From a virus (lineage: Duplodnaviria > Heunggongvirae > Uroviricota > Caudoviricetes): a DNA stretch of 26,852 nucleotides. The notes below the pieces were generated by a model. That model saw only the letters and a program-made list of their open reading frames with translations, did not search any database and was not told where the DNA came from. Below, piece after piece: positions 4,185-20,957 of this stretch (the first letter of the stretch is position 1; each line of letters starts with the position of its first letter). The position numbers and the translations under genes were made by a program. The stretch covers positions 1-26,852 of IMG/VR virus record IMGVR_UViG_2778261537_000020. The stretch is one strand, 5' to 3'.

Positions 4185-5683
4185 GCAAGCCTCACAATAT
4201 AGTTAAATGCGATGTTTTTGACGGTGTTTTCCGCGTTACCAGCAGCGTTAACGGTGATGGTGTGTCCATGTGAGCCAATCGCAACCGAGTGCGTATGAGC
4301 ACCAATACCGACAGTATGTGCGTGAGCACCTGCAGATGCAGCTGTGCCGCTGACACTATGAGTGTGCGCTCCTGCAGCACTTGTATTCACACTGGCCGCA
4401 GACACTACCTTATGTACTGACCCATTTTGTGACCACTGGCTGACTGCTGATGCGCCTGTGACACTATGAGTATGGTTTCCGGCACTTGCGGCTGTACCGC
4501 TCACACTGTGCGTATGCGCCCCGATGTTATTCGTGGATTTAGTGCCGTAATCAAACGACGATGTGGTTTTCGTCCCCAAATCCGTACTGGATGCGCTGGC
4601 GCTGTGGGTGTGCGATTTAATGCCGTCCTGTTCCTGAGACAATACGGCCCGACCACTGGCAGGTTTGCCCTTAATCGTCCAGCCACGCATATCAGGGATC
4701 ACGCCTGACGGATAAGCGGCTGCAAGTTTCGGGTATGCAGATTTGTCAAAAGTCTGCCCCTGCATCAGGACATAACCAGACGGAACGGTATCTGATGGCC
4801 ACGGGATTGGTGCACCGACTGGATAAAACTCTGCAGGAGGATGAGCCGAGGTGTAAAGCTGCGCCCACGGCGACCAGTTTGCGTCGGTCGTATCCCGTCG
4901 TGAACGAATAAATGCCGGAGCATGAGCACCGCTTGTACCACTCCAGCCGATGAGTAACTCACCTTCGCCAACGGCTGTCATCCCTTTCAGGTGAATGATA
5001 TTTCCATACGTTGTTGGATATCCGTTGTTATACACCTCGTATAACTCAAGACCTGCTGCCCCCTGCGTATTGTCTGTCAGCGCGGCTACCCGACCTTTTG
5101 AAGCCAGATTAACTGATGATACTGCTGTTCCACCTGACGGTAGCGCCCCGATCTCTGATGCCGTTGGCTTATTTCTGGAGTTATAGTCCCTTCGCCAGCC
5201 AGGTGAATAATCTGTTCCGTGATTAATATAGGTAAACTGGGCGTTGGTTGTTCCGCCACCGCTGGATGTGGTCGGAGTGGTAATGCGGATCGTCATCGCT
5301 GACTTTATCCCCATTACTTCAATGACAGCTCCGGCGAGATGAATATTACCGCAGCCAGTATCAGTAATGATTTTATTATTGCCATAAGACCAGGAACCCT
5401 TGCACATCCAGTATGGATGGTTAAATGCTCCCTGAGAATCCAGCCACTCGATAAACTGTGCAGTCGTCCAGTTTCCTGTTGTTGTGCTTACTGACCCACC
5501 GAAGGCACGGCAGGCACCAATATTTTTCGTAAAGGTGTCTTTGCCAGGGATATCCGCACCGTTCTGATCTTTCTGCAGACGTTTCTCAGCATTGTCATTG
5601 GCTGCTTTTACTGCCTTTGGCGTTGCCGCCAGCGTTTCAGACGTGCTGTTGGTCGCGCTGCTCACCCTTGCGGGCCATGTCAT
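4181..5683 (-). CDS. stf: Side tail fibre protein Stf, distal portion only (5'-truncated by deletion/fusion to H)
   Basis: 500 aa; begins at the internal conserved ...[19 protein letters not shown]... motif and ends ...[31 protein letters not shown] as in lambda Stf; the N-terminal half of Stf is absent. Confidence 0.8.
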
Positions 5684-8162
5684 ACACTGCCTTCATCATC
5701 TGTGGACCTGGCAGACCATTCGTACCGTCGTTCTGAATCACCACGTGATTGTTCTGATTAAAATTAATGCCTTCAGCCCGCCGCATCTGCGCCGGACTTC
5801 CGGCACCGCCCACATAACCACCTTCCGCATAGCCCCGCATCAGGCGGTACAGGTTGCCGACACCAATCCGGCTGGTTGCCTCCTTCGTGAAGACAAATTC
5901 GCCACGGTGAACAATCCCCGCTGGCTCATATTTGCCGCCGGTTCCCGTAAATCCCCCGGTCGCAAAACGGAATTTCGCCGCAGCGGCCTGAATGGCTGTA
6001 CCGCCTGACGCGGATGCTCCACCACTGGCAGCACCGCCAATGGCGCTGCCGATACTCCCGACAATCCCCACCATTGCCTGCTTAAGCAGAATTTCTGTCA
6101 TCATGGACAGCACGGAACGGGTGAAGCTGCGCCAGTTCTGCTCACTGCCGGTCAGCATCGCCGCCATATTCTGTGCAATACCATCAAAGGTCTGCGTGGC
6201 TGCACTTTTAACCTGCGACATACTGTCCGTGGCGCTCTCTTCCCACTCACTCCAGCCGGACTTCAGGCCTGCCATCCAGCTCCCGCGAAGCTGGTCTTCA
6301 GCCGCCCAGGTCTTTTTCTGCTCTGACATGACGTTATTCAGCGCCAGCGGATTATCGCCATACTGTTCCTTCAGGCGCTGTTCCGTGGCTTCCCGTTCTG
6401 CCTGCCGGTCAGTCAGCCCCCGGCTTTTCGCATCAATGGCGGCCCGTTTTGCCCGTTGCTGCTGTGCGAATTTATCCGCCTGCTGCGCCAGCGCGTTCAG
6501 GCGCTCCTGATACGTAACCTTGTCGCCAAGTGCAGCCAGCTGGCGTTTGTACTCCAGCGTCTCATCTTTATGCGCCAGCAGGGATTTCTCCTGTGCAGAC
6601 AGCTGGCGACGTTGCGCCGCCTCCTCCAGTACCGCGAACTGACTCTCCGCCTTCCACAAATCCCGGCGCTGCTGGCTGATTTTCTCATTCGCTCCGGCAT
6701 GCTTCTCCAGCGTCCGGAGTTCTGCCTGAAGCGTCAGCAGGGCAGCATGAGCACTGTCTTCCTGACGATCGCCCGCAGACACCTTCACGCCGGACTGTTT
6801 CGGCTTTTTCAGCGTCGCTTCATAATCCTTTTTCGCCGCCGCCATCAGCGTGTTGTAATCCGCCTGCAGGATTTTCCCGTCTTTCAGTGCCTTGTTCAGT
6901 TCTTCCTGACGGGCGGTATATTTCTCCAGCGGCGTCTGCAGCCGTTCGTAAGCCTTCTGCGCCTCTTCGGTATATTTCAGCCGTGACGCTTCGGTATCGC
7001 TCTGCTGCTGCGCATTTTTGTCCTGTTGAGTCTGCTGCTCAGCCTTCTTTCGGGCGGCTTCAAGCGCAAGACGGGCCTTTTCACGATCATCCCAGTAACG
7101 CGCCCGCGCTTCATCGTTAACAAAATAATCATCCTTGCGCAGATTCCAGATGTCGTCTGCTTTCTTAAACGCAGCCTCTGCCTTAATCAGCATCTCCTGC
7201 GCGGTATCAGGACGACCAATATCCAGCACCGCATCCCACATGGATTTGAATGCCCGCGCAGTCCTGTCTGCCCAGGTCTCCAGCGTGCCCATGTTCTCTT
7301 TCAGGCGGCGGGTCTGGTCATCAAACCCTTTCGTTGCGGCCTCGTTCGCCGCCTGCAATGCCCCGGCTTCATCGCCGGAACGCTGCAACTGAGCAACATA
7401 CGCAATCTGCTCCGCCGTCACGTTATGGAACTGGCGTGCCATCGCCGTCAGCCCCGACGTCGGGTCTGTGGTCAGCTTCCCGAAGGCTTCAGCGACCTTG
7501 TCCACCTCCACGCCGGATGCAGAGGAGAAACGCGCCACACTCTGGCTGATGGACGCAATCTGAGCCTCACCGCTTACCCCCGCCTTAACCAGTGCGCTGA
7601 GTGACTCGCTGGTCTGGTTAAACGTCAGCCCTGCCGCCTGCCCGGCTCTGGACAGGACCAGCATACGATCTGCCGTCAGTCCCGCCTGATTGCCGGAAAG
7701 GACCAGCGTTTTGTTGAAATCGGACAGGGTTGAGTTGCCCTGATACCAGGCATACGCCAGCGCACCGGTCGCCACCGCCAGCGAGGTGGCCCCCACCATC
7801 GGCAGGGTGATCGCACCGGCAAGCCCCCTGAACATGGGGATCATCCCGCCGAAGGAGTCCTTCACCTGCCCCCCCTGTTGCAGCAGGATCAGCCACGGAC
7901 TTTGCCCGCCTGCAAGCTGCGTGGCCACGTCGGTGAACTGTGCAGGCAGCATACGCATGGCGGCTTTATACTGCCCGACGGAAATCCCCGCTTTCTGTGC
8001 AGCCAGCGCCTGTCGGCTCAGCGACTGTTCAACGACTGCCGCTGTTTTTTTCGCATCACTTTCCGTACCGGAAAAATGACGCCTGACTCTGGCCATCTGC
8101 TCGTCAAATCTGGCCGCATCCAGACTCAAATCAACGACCAGATCGCCTACCGGTTCAGCCAT
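5637..8162 (-). CDS. H: Tail tape measure protein H (lambda gpH-like), diverging over the last ~8 residues
   Basis: 841 aa; [30 protein letters not shown]... essentially collinear with remembered lambda H up to ...[10 protein letters not shown], then EQRDQQHV*. Confidence 0.9.
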
Positions 8163-10508: not shown

Positions 10509-10802
10509 ATGAAAAAAATGTTGTTTTCTGCCGCTCTGGCAATGCTTATTACAGGATGTGCTCAACAGACGTTTACTGTTGGAAACAAACCGACAGCAGT
10601 AACACCAAAGGAAACCATCACCCATCATTTCTTCGTTTCGGGAATTGGACAGGAGAAAACTGTTGATGCAGCCAAAATTTGTGGCGGCGCAGAAAATGTT
10701 GTTAAAACAGAAACCCAGCAAACATTCGTAAATGGATTTCTCGGTTTTATTACTTTAGGCATTTATACTCCGCTGGAAGCGCGTGTGTATTGCTCACAAT
10801 AA
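10509..10802 (+). CDS. bor: Bor outer-membrane lipoprotein (serum-resistance moron)
   Basis: MKKMLFSAALAMLITGC lipobox; 97 aa from Met-17 of the track ORF with AGGA RBS; matches lambda Bor. Confidence 0.85.
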   Translation: MKKMLFSAALAMLITGCAQQTFTVGNKPTAVTPKETITHHFFVSGIGQEKTVDAAKICGGAENVVKTETQQTFVNGFLGFITLGIYTPLEARVYCSQ

Positions 10803-10833
10803 TTGCATGAGTTGCCCATCGATATGGGCAGCT

Positions 10834-12165: not shown

Positions 12166-12593
12166 AAGCTGTGTGACGAAGTAACCACTCTTAACAGCAT
12201 AACCAATTTTTTACGTACGTAAACCACAAAATGATATTTGCGAGAATGCTACCGAGTATTGAAAACACCACTACAAATACATAAGCAAATCTCAACAAAT
12301 AACCAACAAATAATTTCCAGTGTTATTTTTAGCCGATTTAAATTGAACCTTCAAATTACAGAGCACTTATAAATAACAGCCGTTAATATAAATTGGCTAA
12401 TAGATTTATTTTTATTCAGCCAAGATCCATGAATAGGATTCGATAGAAAAAAGTTCAGATAAAAATAGAGATCTACTTCACAAATCAAACGAGAAACCAA
12501 AACTTACATCTTGAAATAATCACATTGATTAGATGAATATTTATCGCGCAGTGACATCATTTTTTAATAATAGTTCAAAAAAAAGGGCTCACG

Positions 12594-13676
12594 ATGAAAA
12601 AATTAACAGTGGCAATTTCTGCTGTAGCTGCATCAGTACTGATGGCGATGTCTGCTCAGGCAGCTGAAATTTATAATAAAGACAGTAACAAGCTGGATCT
12701 ATATGGGAAAGTTAATGCCAAGCACTACTTCTCCTCTAATGATGCAGATGATGGTGATACTACTTATGCCCGTCTTGGCTTCAAAGGTGAAACCCAAATC
12801 AACGATCAACTGACTGGTTTCGGTCAGTGGGAATATGAATTCAAAGGCAACCGCGCTGAATCTCAAGGCTCCTCCAAAGACAAAACCCGTCTTGCATTTG
12901 CAGGCCTGAAATTCGGGGACTACGGCTCAATCGATTACGGCCGTAACTACGGTGTAGCATATGACATCGGTGCGTGGACTGACGTTCTGCCAGAATTCGG
13001 TGGCGATACCTGGACCCAAACAGATGTGTTCATGACTGGTCGCACCACTGGTGTTGCAACTTATCGTAACAACGACTTCTTTGGTCTGGTTGATGGTCTG
13101 AACTTTGCTGCTCAGTATCAGGGTAAAAATGACCGCACTGACGTAACTGAAGCTAATGGTGATGGTTTCGGTTTCTCCACTACTTATGAGTATGAAGGAT
13201 TCGGTGTAGGTGCAACCTATGCTAAATCTGACCGCACTAATAATCAGGTTATCTACGGTAACAACAGCCTGAATGCATCTGGTCAAAATGCTGAAGTATG
13301 GGCAGCTGGTCTGAAATATGATGCGAACAACATCTATCTGGCTACCACCTATTCTGAAACCCAGAACATGACTGTTTTTGGTAATAACCATATTGCCAAC
13401 AAAGCACAAAACTTCGAAGTAGTTGCACAATATCAGTTCGACTTCGGTCTGCGTCCGTCCGTTGCTTACCTGCAATCTAAAGGAAAAGACTTGGGTGCGT
13501 GGGGTGATCAGGACCTGGTTGAATATATTGATGTAGGTGCAACCTATTACTTCAACAAAAATATGTCCACTTTTGTTGATTACAAAATCAACCTGATTGA
13601 TAAGAGCGATTTCACGAAAGCATCTGGCGTTGCTACCGATGATATCGTTGCTGTAGGTATGGTTTACCAGTTCTAA
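12594..13676 (+). CDS. nmpC: Outer-membrane general porin, NmpC/Lc (OmpC/OmpF family), apparently intact
   Basis: 360 aa with signal peptide [30 protein letters not shown]... and C-terminal ...VAVGMVYQF porin signature. Confidence 0.9.
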
Positions 13677-13864: not shown

Positions 13865-14263
13865 TTAATTAGAGTTATTAACAACGATATCCATCTCTAA
13901 CCGGATATCTAATGCCATTAACATCCCTTCAATTATGCCCTCAGCCTTCTGTAACCTTTTCCCGATATAACCATCAGAGCAGCAATGCTTACCTGCCAGT
14001 GACATGAATGTCATACCGACTACATAATAATCTACTAATAAATCGTGCAAATCGCTGTTGTTCTTTTTCAGACGGGCCATGCACCCGCAAATAATCATCG
14101 CGTCATCGTCACAACATTGCGGGCGAGATTTTACTTTTGAAGTAATTAATCCCTTAAAACCGGCGGCAATGGACGACCAGGTCACATCTTCATGATTATT
14201 AGCCGCCCACGCTCCCCAACGCTCAAGAACCATCTGAATATCACGCATCAACTTACTCCACAA
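13865..14263 (-). CDS. Q: Late-gene antiterminator Q (DLP12 QuuD-like)
   Basis: 132-aa ORF (...[24 protein letters not shown]...[16 protein letters not shown]...), Cys-rich zinc-binding region; sits between rusA/ylcG and the lysis cassette. Confidence 0.8.
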
Positions 14264-14833: not shown

Positions 14834-15120
14834 GCCTTAATAACCCCCTCTTTCAGCCAGATAACCTGTGTTCTCGCCATACCTTCCAGCGCGCATTCTT
14901 TTGCATATGCAGCATCGACAAAATGTGTGCGGCGGTCGATTTCGTCGTGGCAGGCAGAACATGCAATGGTGGCAATCAGGTCTGGCGGTTTGATACCGGT
15001 ACCGCACAATCCAGCCAGCCGGATATGTGCCAGTACAGACGTTTCAGAATTGCCATTACATACGCCAGGGATTCTTACCTGGCATTCCCGACCACGCGCT
15101 GCTTTTCTCAAATCAGCCAT
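14830..15120 (-). CDS. ybcO: YbcO-like nin-region protein (Cys-rich, putative nuclease, DUF1364-type)
   Basis: [42 protein letters not shown]...; 96 aa from the internal Met of the track ORF. Confidence 0.6.
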
Positions 15121-15283
15121 GATTCCTCCTTGCTGCCAGTCGCAACCATTTTTTATCAACCAGGCTAGCGGTATATCCGAGCAGTGTTGGTATTTCGGAT
15201 GGCTTCAGCTCAGGCTTACGCTTACGACGATTTGATACTCTGTAGATGTGTCCGTTCATGACACGAATAAGCGGTGTAGCCAT
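15113..15283 (-). CDS. ninE: NinE
   Basis: Hand translation [56 protein letters not shown]; overlaps the ybcN stop and the ybcO start; not in the ORF track (under 60 aa). Confidence 0.6.
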   Translation of the reverse strand: MATPLIRVMNGHIYRVSNRRKRKPELKPSEIPTLLGYTASLVDKKWLRLAARRNHG

Positions 15284-15738
15284 TACGCCTCCTGCTTGTC
15301 GCGGAGCAGCTGGAACTCGCAGCTCTGCGGAATAGTCAGGTGGCAGCCAATATTCACCGCCCAGGCTTCAACCTTACACAGGAAGACATACATCTCTCCG
15401 GTATCAAGATCGGAGGTATGGCGTAACGACTGGATAGTGGTGATATCACCGGTTACGACATCAACCAGGTCTTTGGTTTCATAACCGAGATATGTGTGTT
15501 TGAGAGCATCTTTTACCCAAGCTGGAGTGGCGAACGTTTTACCCCTGCTGATGAGGTATTCACTGATTTCGCTGTACCACATGTGGCTGAGTGCATTCTG
15601 GGAAAGACTGCGTTTCTCACGCCACGGTTTAAGCACCATGCGAAAGCATTTGCCCTCCTCCAGATAAGGCTGGATCTGCCGACCGATAGCGGTGAAGTTG
15701 CCGCGATGTAATTTGATGCCGTCTTGTGAGAGGTTCAC
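15283..15738 (-). CDS. ybcN: YbcN-like nin-region protein
   Basis: 151-aa [64 protein letters not shown]... Confidence 0.6.
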
Positions 15739-15952
15739 GCTTCACCTCCGCAGAGGTCAAACGCTAGATGCAAAGAATTGCAGGTGCATTTCTGCATCTG
15801 TGAAGGGAGAAGAGAGTTTGGATTGTATGTGCGCATAAACGTCCCCGTTTAGCGCAGAAGTCACCGGAGTTGTTCAGGCTCCGGTGACATAATTATGCCG
15901 TGTTGATTTCCCAAAATCAAAATCGATAGAATTGCTCCTTCTTAAAACACTT

Positions 15953-16750
15953 TTACTCTCTGGAAGCTTTTCTTATCTCTCTTGGTGTTATATTAAAACG
16001 ATTATGAAATCTTTCAGTAAAACGAGAAGGACACTTATAACCATTTTCTCTGGCAATCTCGCTTATAGGTTTTACCGTCGTTTGTATAGCAGACAACGCA
16101 TTATTTAACCTCACATCGTCCAGTATACTTTGGAAACTTACCCCCTCGCTTGCTAGACGGCGATGTAATGTAGAAACAGAAATGTAGAGATATCGAGCAA
16201 CCTTGTTTGCTGTCCATTTTGTGCCGGGTTCGGATAGCAGCAGGTTATAACAACGACTTATCAATGATTGTTTACTATATGATAAAAGTAAATGATTAAC
16301 ATGATTCACTCCTAACGAAAGTAGAACGCCCATTGCTAAGTGCTCCTGAATTTTAGTTGAGAAGCCTCGGGAAACAGATGTTTTTAGTTGCTCCCAACAA
16401 TATATTAACTCAGGATTCTGAGGTAAAAAGAAACTTGTTTTGTTACGTATTTGATCAGTTACCGTATAAAGTTTTTGGAAACTCTCAATTAAATCAATGG
16501 GTAAGTAAAGCATTTCTGCAAGATAAAGCCCTGCTTCAGGATAATTCTCAATATAAAATTCATAACCACAAGGAAATAATATTATTTGATTATTATCAAC
16601 AGTTAAAGTATGCGTCTCCCAATTGATAACTTTCTTTCCCTGACGGATACGACACAAAGCTGGCATAAGAGGCTTAACCCTATGAATCTCATGATGTTTA
16701 TGCATCCGTATTTCTTCGATCTTTAAGTTAGTCTTACCTCTTGCCAGCAT
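15953..16750 (-). CDS. ybcM: AraC/XylS-family transcriptional regulator (YbcM-like)
   Basis: 265 aa; C-terminal AraC-type HTH (...[45 protein letters not shown]...[32 protein letters not shown]); AT-rich gene. Confidence 0.8.
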
Positions 16751-16759
16751 ACTCTCACC

Positions 16760-17311
16760 CTACTTTATCTCATAAACTGGTGTTATCTCAGCGGTTGCGA
16801 TTTTATTAGCATTAAGCATATAACCAACTAACGCTCCGCTGGAGTTAGAATCTACAGGAATCTTTTCAGTTTTTAGAGCCCATACTTTAAACTGGTAATG
16901 ATGTGGTTTATCTCCTTTAGGAGGACATGCGCCACCAAACCCAGCATAGCCAAAATCATTTCGGCCTTGAACAGCACCAGTCGGCAGTTTTGTTCCATCA
17001 CGTCTCCCTGCATCAACGGGCAAATATGTTACTGTTGCTGGAATATTAACAACAGTCCAATGCCACCAACCACTGCCTGTAGGTGCATCTGGATCATATA
17101 CAGTTACGGCAAAGCTTTTGGTACCTTCAGGAACACCAGACCAGGTTAATGAGGGCGATGTATTACCACCTTCACACCCAAATCCAGAAAAGACATGAGA
17201 CGTTGTAAGTTGCTCTCCTGTTTTTATTTCATTACTAGTGACCTGAAATGCTGCAGCCTGCGCAGAAAATGTTATGAATGCCAATACAGTTGAAACGATA
17301 AGTGTTTTCAT
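16760..17311 (-). CDS. ybcL: Secreted PEBP/RKIP-family protein (YbcL-like)
   Basis: 183 aa with signal peptide MKTLIVSTVLAFITFSAQA; ...FAVTVYDPDAPTGSGWWHWTVVNIP... and ...GFGGACPPKGDKPHHYQFKVWAL... PEBP motifs. Confidence 0.75.
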   Translation of the reverse strand: MKTLIVSTVLAFITFSAQAAAFQVTSNEIKTGEQLTTSHVFSGFGCEGGNTSPSLTWSGVPEGTKSFAVTVYDPDAPTGSGWWHWTVVNIPATVTYLPVDAGRRDGTKLPTGAVQGRNDFGYAGFGGACPPKGDKPHHYQFKVWALKTEKIPVDSNSSGALVGYMLNANKIATAEITPVYEIK

Positions 17312-17775
17312 AAAAACCTCTTTGTTATGACCTATCGTTATTTTATTTGATATTCCTTTATCTCATTATGCATAAAGGCGCAATGTTCATGCAAAAGCAA
17401 TCACAATTGTACCCCCAACCCAATTATTTGCCACAATATACACAAAGCACATTGATACTATCTAAAAACTCTGCTTTATTATTAGTAATACCTACGAAAG
17501 TCGGTGTTATTTTTTAACCTACCATTCAAAATACGTGACATACACCATTTTGCTCATAATAATTTGTCACGTATTTTCAGTATTTGAATCTGCGACCAAG
17601 AGTTCTCACCTAACAAATGATTAAGATTGTATAGCTCATTTACTACCCCAATACAGCCGTACAAAACTCGCTTGTGGGAGCAAACAAAGTAATTACCCAT
17701 TAAGTTTCGTCAAAGATAATTAATTCTGTCTTGCACTTTATCACCATAGCATAACTTAAAATCCGAGATCATTAT

Positions 17776-19302
17776 TTAGAAATAAATCTCACCATCAACC
17801 ATATATTTGAGAGCACTTATCGCCTGCTGGGCGGATATTACTTTCATTAAAGGATAGTGTTTAAAAACAATGCCATTCATAAAATAGATATCACAGGTTT
17901 TATTATCCGTATTAATTATGATTTTTTCGAATGTTTTATAGGCAAGTGTACGGCATAACTCTCGTCCATTTTTACTGGTTAAGTCAATAGCATAAAAATC
18001 ACTGAATGAATTTACACCTTTACTCTTCAAAGTTTTCAATGATACCGAAGCCCTTCGTAATTCCTTATCTAATAGTCTTATTTTCTCTGCTATAGCGGTA
18101 ACTTCAGGCGCGACAGACAATGCAACGATTAAATTATTAATTTTCATCTGAAGCTCAATAATTTTTAACTCTAAAGTTTCATTAGCATCTTTCTTGTTTT
18201 CAACTGGTTGAATTTTGCTACAATTAAAAAGCAATTCATTAATGATATTATAATCAACCAAATCTCTTTTTATTGATGGCCTGTCACATCGATGTAATCT
18301 TCTCATCGGACAAACATAATAGCCATGCAAACTTCCAGATACCGCATGAACAATCATGGTATTACCACAAGCCTCACACTTCATAACTGTTCGAAGTAGA
18401 TTTATTAGCATAGGATTCTTGCTACTATTGCTAATACCAAAAGGTGCCAACCGAATTTCCTGTACAGCGTAAAACAAATCATCTGATATGACTCTGGGAT
18501 AATAGCCAGCGATTTCACTTATCCCTTTCCCTCTTGCACGATATGAAGGTACGCATATACCTATCAGAGCTTTATTCGCTAATAATTTTTCAATTACAGA
18601 AGGTCCCCATGCACTTTCTTTTCCTGAGAAATTCTTTACAGCATGATCATTTAAATACTTGGCTATTGCATTCAATGAGCGCCTTTCCATCCTGAGTTTA
18701 AAAATTAGCTCAATAGTTTTCACCCTGTCGGGGTCTGGAACAAAAGCCGTTCTTTTGTCATCTAAGGAGAGCCATCTCGGACAAGACGCCGTCATAATCG
18801 TACCTGATTCCAGTGCATCCTGCCGTTTTTTCTTCCATGATAATTTAACCCGACTTGACTTTATCTCGCTTTCTTCATTTGCCCTTTGTGCTATAAGTAT
18901 GGCTTTTATTAATGAATATGGCTCATTCAAAGAGTCAATATTATAGACTGTATGGTCGCAAAGAGTTATAACATCAATACCGTGATTCAAAATCAATTTC
19001 AGACGTTCAATCGCTTCACCGACTTTTTCTCTTGAAAGTCTGTCCAGACTTTCAACTAACAATGTAGTTCCTGGCAATATATAACCATGCTCTATAGCAT
19101 CTAAAAATTCCGAAAAAGCTCCTGATTGTGCATGCTTTCCTTTGAATGCACTTAATCCTAAATCTTCATATGTTATGGTATCAAGATAATAATCACTATT
19201 TACCTTTAACCATTCAGCAATAAGTCTTCTCTGTCGGTTTAATGAGTCGCCAGACATCTGACCTGGTGATGAAAATCGCATATATGCTATGGCTTTTTTC
19301 AT
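17776..19302 (-). CDS. ybcK: Large serine recombinase (YbcK-like): resolvase catalytic domain, recombinase domain, Cys-rich zinc ribbon
   Basis: 508 aa; N-terminal AIAYMRFSSPGQ...SLNRQ (catalytic Ser), ...VESLDRLSR...; later ...KCEACGNTM...YYVCPMRRLHRCD; AT-rich. Confidence 0.85.
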   Translation of the reverse strand: MKKAIAYMRFSSPGQMSGDSLNRQRRLIAEWLKVNSDYYLDTITYEDLGLSAFKGKHAQSGAFSEFLDAIEHGYILPGTTLLVESLDRLSREKVGEAIERLKLILNHGIDVITLCDHTVYNIDSLNEPYSLIKAILIAQRANEESEIKSSRVKLSWKKKRQDALESGTIMTASCPRWLSLDDKRTAFVPDPDRVKTIELIFKLRMERRSLNAIAKYLNDHAVKNFSGKESAWGPSVIEKLLANKALIGICVPSYRARGKGISEIAGYYPRVISDDLFYAVQEIRLAPFGISNSSKNPMLINLLRTVMKCEACGNTMIVHAVSGSLHGYYVCPMRRLHRCDRPSIKRDLVDYNIINELLFNCSKIQPVENKKDANETLELKIIELQMKINNLIVALSVAPEVTAIAEKIRLLDKELRRASVSLKTLKSKGVNSFSDFYAIDLTSKNGRELCRTLAYKTFEKIIINTDNKTCDIYFMNGIVFKHYPLMKVISAQQAISALKYMVDGEIYF

Positions 19303-19556
19303 GGTGACACCTGCTAACGTATGCTTTTATAAACCTTAGTGGTGGGATATAATTTTTGTTTAATTTTTATTTAAAAAGACAATTAAGGTCACATTATCTT
19401 GAATATACAACAATAATGGTATTGCATTTTTCTTACGCGATAATCTTGAAATCACAAAAGAATACATAAAAAATAAAGACATTAACAAAAAGCATAAAAC
19501 GAGGCTCATATAAATATAAGAGCCTCCATATTTTAGTCGTTTAGAAACAAATTATT

Positions 19557-19889
19557 TTAATGTGGTGTGCTTCGTGACAATAAATTAATAACCAACACAC
19601 CGGCACAAATCAACATCATGCCTATAATGGCTGGCAGGTCCAGCCGTTGGCCGAAAAATCCCCATGACAGTAAGCTAATCAGGACAATACCGACTCCTGA
19701 CCAGATAGCATAAGCAATCCCTGTAGGAATATAAGCCAGCGTCTGAGCTAATAACCAGAATGATGCACAATAACAAATAATTGTACCAACAGATGGCCAT
19801 AACCGTGTAAAACCTTCTGAAAACTTCATTAAGGTTGTACCAATGACCTCTGCAAGTATTGCACCACCAAGATAAATATAAGGGTTCAT
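19557..19889 (-). CDS. emrE: Small multidrug resistance efflux transporter EmrE
   Basis: MNPYIYLGGAILAEVIGTTLMKFSEGFTRLWPSVGTIICYCASFWLLAQTLAYIPTGIAYAIWSGVGIVLISLLSWGFFGQRLDLPAIIGMMLICAGVL...; 110 aa from the internal Met of the track ORF. Confidence 0.9.
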   Translation of the reverse strand: MNPYIYLGGAILAEVIGTTLMKFSEGFTRLWPSVGTIICYCASFWLLAQTLAYIPTGIAYAIWSGVGIVLISLLSWGFFGQRLDLPAIIGMMLICAGVLVINLLSRSTPH

Positions 19890-19956
19890 AGCATATTCTT
19901 TCCTGTTCAAACTGGAGAGAATTGTACTACAGTTTGAACTCAACTCACCTGTTTCA

Positions 19957-20259
19957 TCATTGTGTTCCCATTGATGTTCTTTTATATACCCTCAGTACCC
20001 GTTTCATCGCGGCACTCTGGCGACACTCCTTAAAAATCAGATTCGTGCTCACCTTTCCTTCCCGTTCTTCTCTGGTAGCGAACCGGTAATACACCGTTCG
20101 CCAGACCTTACCATCAACGACCAGGATTCCTGCCCGCGCCATTTTAGCCGCAGCCTGATTTATGCTGGTTACGGTTGCGCCTGTTACCGCGGCAACGTCC
20201 TGTGCACAGAAGCTCTTATGCGTCCCCAGGTAATGAATAATTGCCTCTTTGCCCGTCAT
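19957..20259 (-). CDS. ren: Ren (Rex-exclusion) protein, lambda-like
   Basis: 100 aa MTGKEAIIHYLGTHKSFCAQDVAAVTGATVTSINQAAAKMARAGILVVDGKVWRTVYYRFATREEREGK...; position immediately after P. Confidence 0.7.
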   Translation of the reverse strand: MTGKEAIIHYLGTHKSFCAQDVAAVTGATVTSINQAAAKMARAGILVVDGKVWRTVYYRFATREEREGKVSTNLIFKECRQSAAMKRVLRVYKRTSMGTQ

Positions 20260-20957
20260 ACACTTGCTCCTTTCAGTCCGAACTTAGCTTTGATTTCTGC
20301 GATCTTCGCCAGAGCCTGTGCACGATTTAGAGGTCTACCGCCCATGACAGGAAGTTGTTTTACTGGTTCAGGTATCGCCTCACCACGGTTAATTCGCGCG
20401 GTCATACAGGACAGTTCATCGGCAGCCTTGCGCCGTAATTCCGCGTCAGTCAACGCATTGGCCCGCATGTTCTGATACAGGTTGGTAACCAGCCAGTAGT
20501 GCGCGTTTGATTTCCACGGATAAGACTCTGCATCCGGATACAGACCACGCTTCCGGCAATACTCGTAAACCATATCAACCAGCTCGCTGACGTTTGGCAG
20601 CCCGGCGGTAACGGATGCTTCTTCCCGGCACCATGCAACAAACTGCCCGGGTGATGGCAGAAATGGTCTATTCTGCCGACGGGCAACACGCATTCCGGCG
20701 CTCACCTGTTCCATCGTGGTGATCCCGTTTTCCCGGAAAGCCAGAACCCACTGGCGGCGGATTTCGTTCAGTTCGTTCTGGTCACGATTAGCCAGGCTCG
20801 CCGGGAAAGTTGCCAGTAACTGGCTGAATACACCGTTGATTATCTGCGCTACCTGCTGTACCTGCGGCTTTTCGTCGTACTGTTCCGGCATGTTGTTGGC
20901 GATCCGACGCATCTGCTCACGGTCAAAGTTAATCATCTGTGCGGCGATGTTTTTCAT
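20256..20957 (-). CDS. P: Replication protein P (DnaB helicase loader)
   Basis: 233 aa MKNIAAQMINFDREQMRRIANNMPEQYDEKPQVQQVAQIINGVFSQLLATF..., near-identical to remembered lambda P. Confidence 0.9.
   Translation of the reverse strand: MKNIAAQMINFDREQMRRIANNMPEQYDEKPQVQQVAQIINGVFSQLLATFPASLANRDQNELNEIRRQWVLAFRENGITTMEQVSAGMRVARRQNRPFLPSPGQFVAWCREEASVTAGLPNVSELVDMVYEYCRKRGLYPDAESYPWKSNAHYWLVTNLYQNMRANALTDAELRRKAADELSCMTARINRGEAIPEPVKQLPVMGGRPLNRAQALAKIAEIKAKFGLKGASV

Follow-up and report, generated by a model that had tools for sequence, protein, structure and literature searches.

Probable stepwise assembly of the emrE-ybcK-ybcL-ybcM cargo block in a hypervariable slot of DLP12-type lambdoid phages

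Background

The cryptic prophage DLP12 of Escherichia coli K-12 carries the genes emrE, ybcK, ybcL and ybcM (b0543-b0546), and the same genes, in the same order and with the same flanks, are present in a 26,852-nucleotide stretch of caudoviral DNA (IMG/VR record IMGVR_UViG_2778261537_000020, positions 1 to 26,852), here called the window. The present analysis concerns the origin of this ~4-kb block, and in particular of its member ybcK, which encodes an intact large serine recombinase (LSR). The initial annotation of the window had proposed that the LSR defines a nested integrative element that delivered the efflux pump gene emrE and the regulator gene ybcM to the phage. Our comparisons suggest instead that the block is probably a stepwise mosaic of cargo genes (morons) in a hypervariable slot of DLP12-type lambdoid phages.

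The block itself is already known, being the annotated DLP12-type cargo (emrE, ybcK, ybcL, ybcM), and the initial annotation had rightly linked it to K-12, where the DLP12 region is 99.6-99.7% identical to the window and has the same genes annotated. A ~1.26-kb copy of the insertion sequence IS3, presumably located in ren, interrupts the match in genomes derived from K-12, whereas the window prophage is without IS3 in this region. DLP12 of K-12 is a defective prophage, yet DNA identical to the window occurs in viable phages. These carry the whole arrangement, as typified by phage PhiR34_1, which along with E. coli strain C5 is 99.9% identical to the window in this region, with RefSeq listing the same genes there.

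Three other groups of described systems are relevant to the comparison. The morons and nin-region cargo of lambdoid phages, such as bor and lom of lambda, resemble the block in their foreign composition between backbone genes, their dispensability and replaceability, and their own regulation; the window cargo differs from them in being composite and in containing a complete LSR, which is unusual moron content. The large serine integrases of phages (A118/LI, phiC31, TP901-1, Bxb1) share with YbcK the same domain architecture and the same catalytic and zinc-binding residues, but ybcK is internal to the prophage and its family is distant from the characterised integrases. The LSR transposases TnpX of Tn4451 and TndX of Tn5397 move discrete segments without long terminal repeats, the elements themselves being several kb in size, carrying passenger genes and using multiple insertion sites. 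In contrast, the segment containing ybcK is ~2 kb, has one gene, and is found at one and the same site in every E. coli copy examined.

Results and discussion

The block occupies a sharply bounded cargo slot

The block lies between ren, P and O on one side and ybcN-ninE-ybcO-rusA on the other. Its genes and immediate flanks in the window are:

15283..15738, minus strand: ybcN (NinB-like), ORF (open reading frame) with NCBIfam PRK09741 at 277 bits; backbone gene next to the slot, towards Q
15739..15922, minus strand: boundary element of 184 bp, conserved upstream of ybcN, that marks the left edge of the cargo slot in every variant
15953-16750, minus strand: ybcM, AraC family (Pfam HTH_18, 9.5e-17, residues 185-261); second gene of the ybcLM operon
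16760-17311, minus strand: ybcL, PEBP/RKIP-like (Pfam PBP, 3.2e-42; NCBIfam PRK09818 (NF007330), 400 bits against a cutoff of 277, full length)
17776-19302, minus strand: ybcK, intact 508-aa LSR (Pfam Resolvase, Recombinase and Zn_ribbon_recom)
19557-19889, minus strand: emrE, SMR multidrug/quaternary-cation efflux pump, 110 aa (Pfam Multi_Drug_Res, 3.4e-35)
19957-20259, minus strand: ren, named from RefSeq records of identical DNA; backbone gene next to the slot, towards the replication genes

The GC content of the block (15923-19956) is 36.3%, as against 50.2% from ybcN to Q and 50.5% from ren to O. This agrees with the earlier description of a low-GC, four-gene block between ren and the ybcN-side backbone, and all the genes are where that description had placed them. 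The two long AT-rich intergenic regions reported with them are also real, with 17312-17775 being 464 bp at 33% GC and 19303-19556 being 254 bp at 27% GC. The block as such thus stands, but its proposed end at 19943 has to be corrected, as an ORF of 128 aa that is extended too far starts there with TTG, while the actual emrE is the 110-aa ATG ORF at 19557-19889. The base composition, together with the replacement of the slot contents described below, bears out the proposal that the phage backbone does not include these genes, which are cargo of a non-canonical kind and of foreign base composition.

The slot between the ren stop codon and the boundary element is a hypervariable, sharply bounded cargo hotspot. 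Homology on the ybcN side ends at 15922 in all prophage variants that share the backbone, regardless of the cargo, and ybcN adjoins every cargo variant compared. Beyond this point lie, in different representatives, ybcLM; a 280-bp remnant (O157-type); an alpha/beta hydrolase gene, also seen in phage 4A7; a P22AR-C gene with a hypothetical gene; a YajG-family lipoprotein gene; HEPN-containing cargo; a gene for a TIR-domain protein; or two small ORFs. On the ren side, the cargo begins at the ren stop codon or within ~40 bp of it, and relics and cargo variants cease to be homologous at 19965-19997. An empty ren-ybcN junction was not found in a search with the joined backbone edges as the query, in which flanks separated by cargo of up to ~1.1 kb could be merged; the smallest cargo was ~750 bp.

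The boundary element contains a hairpin with a 10-bp stem at 15860-15888 and an annotated 33-aa ORF overlapping the start of ybcN, and we assume that it may be the counterpart of the ninA/tR2 region of lambda. It is retained in a prophage relic at the fliE locus and partly in Escherichia albertii (see below), and one prophage (L008) has a second copy at 5091-5219, which flanks other cargo. This element may act as a recombination anchor for cargo exchange. The att-like repeats that the initial annotation had envisaged at the block boundaries were sought as direct and inverted repeats at the outer edges (15922/19965 and 15922/19956), and the best scores were equalled or exceeded by 49-89% of random window pairs. 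The block edges are junctions used by unrelated cargo in the relatives, which is largely the outcome that the initial annotation had itself named as counting against a nested element.

Proteins with TIR (L021, 941-1753), HEPN (L008, 2961-4665) and SIR2 (L019, 3755-5695) domains are encoded in the ren-ybcN slot or in the equivalent nin region of another lambdoid contig, which points to a further role of the slot as a hotspot for candidate genes of anti-phage defence. The PADLOC defence models gave no match to any of the four window-block proteins.

Triads of emrE, ybcL and ybcM that lack ybcK

Of 5426 complete E. coli genomes, 2621 have a contiguous emrE-ybcL-ybcM triad in the interval bounded by yedK and fliE. 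This triad shares 89-92% identity with the window and aligns with positions 15736-17466 and 19555-19965, with 11 bp replacing window positions 17467-19554. Also present at this locus are 97 bp of the 3' end of Q (window 13867-13963), fused directly to 15736, and the region upstream of the phage porin gene. Two representatives are:

L001, 11478-14153, and L144, 1881-5739: fliE-type relic loci, matching window 12256-12634, 13867-13963, 15736-17466 and 19555-19965

The presence of the boundary element, the Q 3' end and the porin upstream region identifies the fliE locus as a decayed, DLP12-like prophage relic. At the same site K-12 has an integrase pseudogene annotated as 'cryptic prophage PR-G'. 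In strain HH45 the whole porin gene and phage-type alleles (97-99.8% identity) are found there, yet ybcK is missing. In the window the OmpC/NmpC-like phage porin gene (12594-13676) is an intact 360-aa ORF, while the porin copy of DLP12 in K-12 is interrupted by an insertion sequence. No description of the second, fliE-linked emrE-ybcL-ybcM copy was found in the literature searched.

Another triad without ybcK occurs in E. albertii, where it adjoins sapF and a tyrosine integrase gene and keeps 34 bp of ren along with part of the boundary element. In this locus (L027, 3403-4632) the triad lies directly downstream of a 409-aa ORF, and E. coli DNA matching the stretch of this ORF carries the annotation of a tyrosine-type integrase adjacent to sapF; the triad is followed by genes for an oxidoreductase, an alpha/beta hydrolase and a LysR protein. 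The setting resembles a further island or relic that houses the same cargo. Plesiomonas has ybcLM only. The sequence relationships between the triads group the window with the fliE relic, with E. albertii outside this pair.

The ybcK segment is a discrete insert in the emrE-ybcL spacer

With E. albertii as the outgroup, the limits of the DNA that accompanies ybcK could be set, and the relevant features are:

17503..19490, minus strand: ybcK segment, ~1.99 kb, single gene, 34.5% GC; ends approximate, within ~10-40 bp; interrupts the emrE-ybcL spacer
17312..17502, minus strand: ybcLM upstream (promoter) region, part of the ancestral emrE-ybcL spacer; aligns to the E. albertii spacer until 17502 and to the fliE locus until 17466
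19303..19490, minus strand: ybcK leader; overlaps the annotated 'ylcJ' (19360-19509)
19500..19527, minus strand: hairpin GAGGCTC...GAGCCTC just downstream of emrE; an equivalent hairpin follows emrE in E. albertii
17528..17577, no strand assigned: palindrome of 50 bp, 13-bp perfect arms AAAATACGTGACA / TGTCACGTATTTT with a 24-bp spacer

The segment is missing from the contiguous triads in L001, L144 and L027, and is bracketed by the hairpin downstream of emrE, found in both species, and by the ybcL upstream region. All that survives of the nested-element idea is that this ~2-kb segment would be a discrete later insertion. The gene ybcK is present in 1427 of the 5426 E. coli genomes, nearly always as a single chromosomal copy (median one), and every copy examined is directly downstream of emrE. 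Among 80 IMG/VR viral contigs encoding YbcK at 97-100% identity, the upstream arrangement is always (P-)ren-emrE-leader-ybcK, while at least nine different distances separate ybcK from the boundary element. The 3' flanks of ybcK fall into two families only, namely the window type and one with a P22AR-C fragment, which part company ~41 bp past the stop codon; the other 3' variation in the viral contigs lies deeper in the cargo. Some phages retain emrE-ybcK with ybcLM replaced. The existence of two flank families argues for one junction event followed by ordinary mosaic exchange and not for repeated site-specific events; a YbcK-driven exchange of cassettes at the ybcK 3' end was therefore rejected.

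The palindrome at 17528-17577 lies ~200 bp downstream of ybcK and ~220 bp upstream of ybcL. Every viral-contig match that was checked, a part of the 39, is in the window-type context ~200 bp downstream of ybcK, and no counterpart was found near nine other YbcK-family genes. It was rejected as an att site, given its restriction to the window-type flank and its absence near these nine genes, and could be a binding site for a regulator such as YbcM. Repeats at the junctions of the ybcK segment are at chance level except for an inverted 10-bp match, TTATTTTTTA, near the inferred ends, which has a random-pair frequency of 0.014 (uncorrected, 16 tests). As this weak match is of low complexity and loses significance after 16 tests, it was set aside as a meaningful junction repeat. 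The repeat and junction tests identified no attP, attL or attR site for YbcK.

YbcK is a conserved large serine recombinase with relatives in diverse contexts

YbcK matches the Pfam models Resolvase (1.1e-18), Recombinase (2.3e-14) and Zn_ribbon_recom (8.1e-08). In an alignment of 22 sequences it has the family-invariant residues R9, S11, Q15, D87, R88 and R91, and the equally invariant cysteines C309, C312, C331 and C339 of the zinc ribbon. A search of the PDB with the single YbcK sequence gave no matches, and a family profile was required; this profile matches the C-terminal domain of the A118 integrase over positions 190-473 (E=2e-15), and also the catalytic domains of phiC31 and TP901-1. 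Between variants that are ~3.3% apart in DNA there are 13 nonsynonymous and 36-38 synonymous changes, giving a ratio of nonsynonymous to synonymous substitution rates (dN/dS) of ~0.09, and none of the variants compared has an internal stop. This conservation points to ybcK as a maintained gene, with every LSR hallmark, whose product is predicted to be functional.

Homologues of YbcK with 40-61% identity are found in the Enterobacterales, and those examined occupy two main kinds of site. One of these is the end of a prophage after a tail-fibre assembly gene, as in Atlantibacter, Yersinia and Erwinia, for which ~8-10 kb of flank was covered. The Atlantibacter homologue (L011, 8001-10432; 59% identity) is the last prophage gene, 540 bp from the 3' end of ssrA (tmRNA); that of Erwinia (L017, 8001-10954; 52% identity) is again the last prophage gene and adjoins lepA; and that of Yersinia abuts a P2-like prophage. 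Judging from these positions, the prophage-end homologues could be true integrases, although the terminal spot is also a classic cargo position. The other kind of site, likewise a classic home of cargo, is the nin region between the replication genes and Q, as in Pantoea and several unassigned lambdoid contigs. Between the different contexts of the family, nucleotide homology is confined to the ORF and ~40-120 bp upstream.

Outside these two kinds of site, a Citrobacter koseri homologue (L015, 6145-9530; 50% identity) is in a plasmid-like or integrative-and-conjugative-element-like context with MobA/MobL and TraD, and its neighbour has a faint Shufflon_N match, which hints that some members of the family might serve inversion systems. 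In one unassigned lambdoid contig (L019) the first 60 codons of a DUF1367 gene are repeated, at 7652-7853 and 10633-10831, flanking an LSR-KGG-DinI segment; this direct repeat is ~200 bp long, with 86% nucleotide and 97% amino-acid identity. Its close relatives L145-L147 are without the upstream DUF1367 copy and have other cargo there. An interpretation of the repeat as the result of target-restoring integration was rejected, since unequal recombination explains it equally well. The flank that varies in this clade is the one 5' of the recombinase gene, whereas in E. coli it is the 3' flank, and this difference favours a passive resident of a variable slot.

Over-expression of ybcK has been observed to improve sabinene tolerance, with no mechanism given (PMC7181518).

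Transcription units and maintenance of the cargo genes

A Rho-dependent terminator, 'tybcK', has been described in the untranslated ybcK leader and is reported to keep ybcK transcription low (PMC4150792). The ORF annotated as ylcJ, which overlaps this leader, has accumulated 12 nonsynonymous changes between variants but only 0-1 synonymous ones, with frameshifts in several genomes, L005 and L006 among them; it is thus probably not protein-coding. The hairpin at 19500-19527, with its equivalent in E. albertii, is a probable emrE terminator, though it was not called by the consensus terminator scan. Rfam had no matches in 15000-20500 at E<=1.

The EmrE protein matches the NCBIfam model SMR_efflux_EmrE (NF042984) at 240.6 bits, with a cutoff of 226, over positions 1-110 of 110. 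YbcL has a hydrophobic N-terminus that ends in AQA in the translation, from which a signal peptide and a periplasmic location are predicted. YbcM is reported to autoregulate ybcLM, as seen by chromatin immunoprecipitation with exonuclease treatment (ChIP-exo), and ybcLM to contribute to survival of hydrogen peroxide (PMC8464067). According to a meeting abstract, YbcM also represses motility (PMC9966839). The fliE relic sits inside the flagellar gene region, a location that may be of interest given the reported action of YbcM on motility genes. Comparison of the phage genes with their chromosomal paralogues gives dN/dS values of 0.01 for emrE, 0.09 for ybcL and 0.12 for ybcM (dS 0.23-0.38), values that show all three genes shared with the relics to be under strong purifying selection. 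A difference at YbcL residue 78 between uropathogenic E. coli and K-12 was considered and set aside, as the three copies compared all have T78 (precursor numbering).

Origin of the block

From the gene identities, boundaries, distributions and selection observed above we infer an order of events, a mechanism of exchange and a role for YbcK. The oldest component would be a low-GC triad, consisting of emrE and the ybcLM operon, that was already phage cargo in the slot and of which two decayed relics keep a version without ybcK. A ~2.0-kb segment with ybcK as its only gene, along with its leader and 3' flank, would then have moved, in one lineage of phages, into the spacer that separates the emrE terminator from the ybcLM promoter. 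Later, sister phages would have exchanged for other cargo all the DNA lying more than ~41 bp downstream of ybcK. Such exchange may have proceeded mainly by recombination in the conserved flanks, namely P/ren on one side and the boundary element with ybcN on the other, with occasional illegitimate joins, and presumably not by YbcK-mediated site-specific recombination. The outcome would be three separate units that serve the lysogen and not the phage cycle: emrE, ybcLM, and a ybcK kept largely silent by the Rho-dependent terminator in its leader. YbcK itself is most likely a captured phage recombinase gene kept for some benefit and not the mover of the block. The near-identical prophage of strain C5 has a tyrosine integrase gene, intD, next to a tRNA-Arg gene, so that YbcK is not needed to explain its integration.

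The proposal that the whole ~4-kb block is a single nested integrative element, with YbcK as its integrase and emrE, ybcL and ybcM as passengers inserted between ren and ybcN, draws on the presence of an intact LSR inside a compositionally foreign block with sharp boundaries. It is nonetheless very improbable: the edges are generic and hold unrelated, recombinase-free cargo, the boundaries show no repeats beyond chance, and the submodules are distributed independently, with the passengers occurring together without ybcK in two relics and ybcK occurring with emrE but without ybcLM. Furthermore, ybcK is internal, between emrE and ybcLM, and not at an end by an attachment junction. LSRs leave only a 2-bp core, so the lack of long repeats taken alone is weak evidence, but the evidence from distribution is independent of repeats. 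We also regard as unlikely a more restricted version of mobility, in which ybcK and its ~2 kb of DNA form an autonomous single-gene LSR element that inserted itself site-specifically, with the ybcK-less triads being empty or excised targets. The insert is indeed discrete and has one gene, its recombinase is intact and under purifying selection, members of the family are scattered as lone genes in the cargo slots of unrelated prophages with homology limited to the ORF and its short upstream region, and the TTATTTTTTA match lies near its ends. Against this, the E. coli copies examined are at one position only, in the 1427 genomes as in the 80 viral contigs, and nothing points to repeated insertion over a divergence of dS ~0.12; the TTATTTTTTA match fails on complexity and significance; no palindromic or att-like site is common to the family members; and fixed ends fit less well with a variable side that is 5' in the L019 clade and 3' in E. 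coli. We know of no single-gene LSR transposon that has been described.

Loss rather than gain of ybcK would be the alternative if the block had originally held all four genes and the triads had each lost ybcK by a deletion of their own during prophage decay. Both triad-only loci are indeed decayed relics that have lost most of their phage DNA, and all intact phages with the triad also have ybcK. This alternative is quite unlikely, however, as it requires two independent clean deletions of ybcK: in E. albertii the emrE terminator and the ybcL upstream region are ~7 unaligned bases apart with no ybcK remnant, and the fliE-locus junction differs from that of E. albertii by a further loss of ~100 bp. 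Given that the window and the fliE relic group together with E. albertii outside them, one gain of ybcK is more parsimonious than two clean losses. The dS of 0.23-0.38 suggests that the relic versions of emrE and ybcLM branch off outside those linked to ybcK.

Several points weigh against the stepwise mosaic that we prefer. An intact phage with a ybcK-less triad in its nin slot was not found in the E. coli collection. The case for gain over loss depends on parsimony across three lineages, and a precise excision would leave the same pattern. That exchange proceeded by homologous recombination in the flanks is deduced from the shared boundaries and the duplicated L008 element. Consensus promoter and terminator scans of the block performed no better than on shuffled sequence, which is why the separate transcription units rest on the literature and the conserved hairpin. 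Finally, purifying selection shows that YbcK does something, and a stepwise mosaic leaves that role unexplained.

Conclusions

The stepwise mosaic, if correct, closes the question of whether the recombinase brought the efflux pump and the regulator into the phage, which it did not; what is added to the known block is its assembly history. There is a slim chance that LSRs of the YbcK family are autonomous single-gene colonisers of the cargo slots of temperate enterobacterial phages, both in the nin region and distal to the tail-fibre genes, or that they have an unrecognised phage-level function. The second, diverged copy of emrE-ybcL-ybcM in about half of the complete E. coli genomes searched matters for the interpretation of knockouts and variants outside K-12. 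The YbcK family, with an intact and strongly conserved member in a quarter of E. coli genomes, is a cheap target for experiment.

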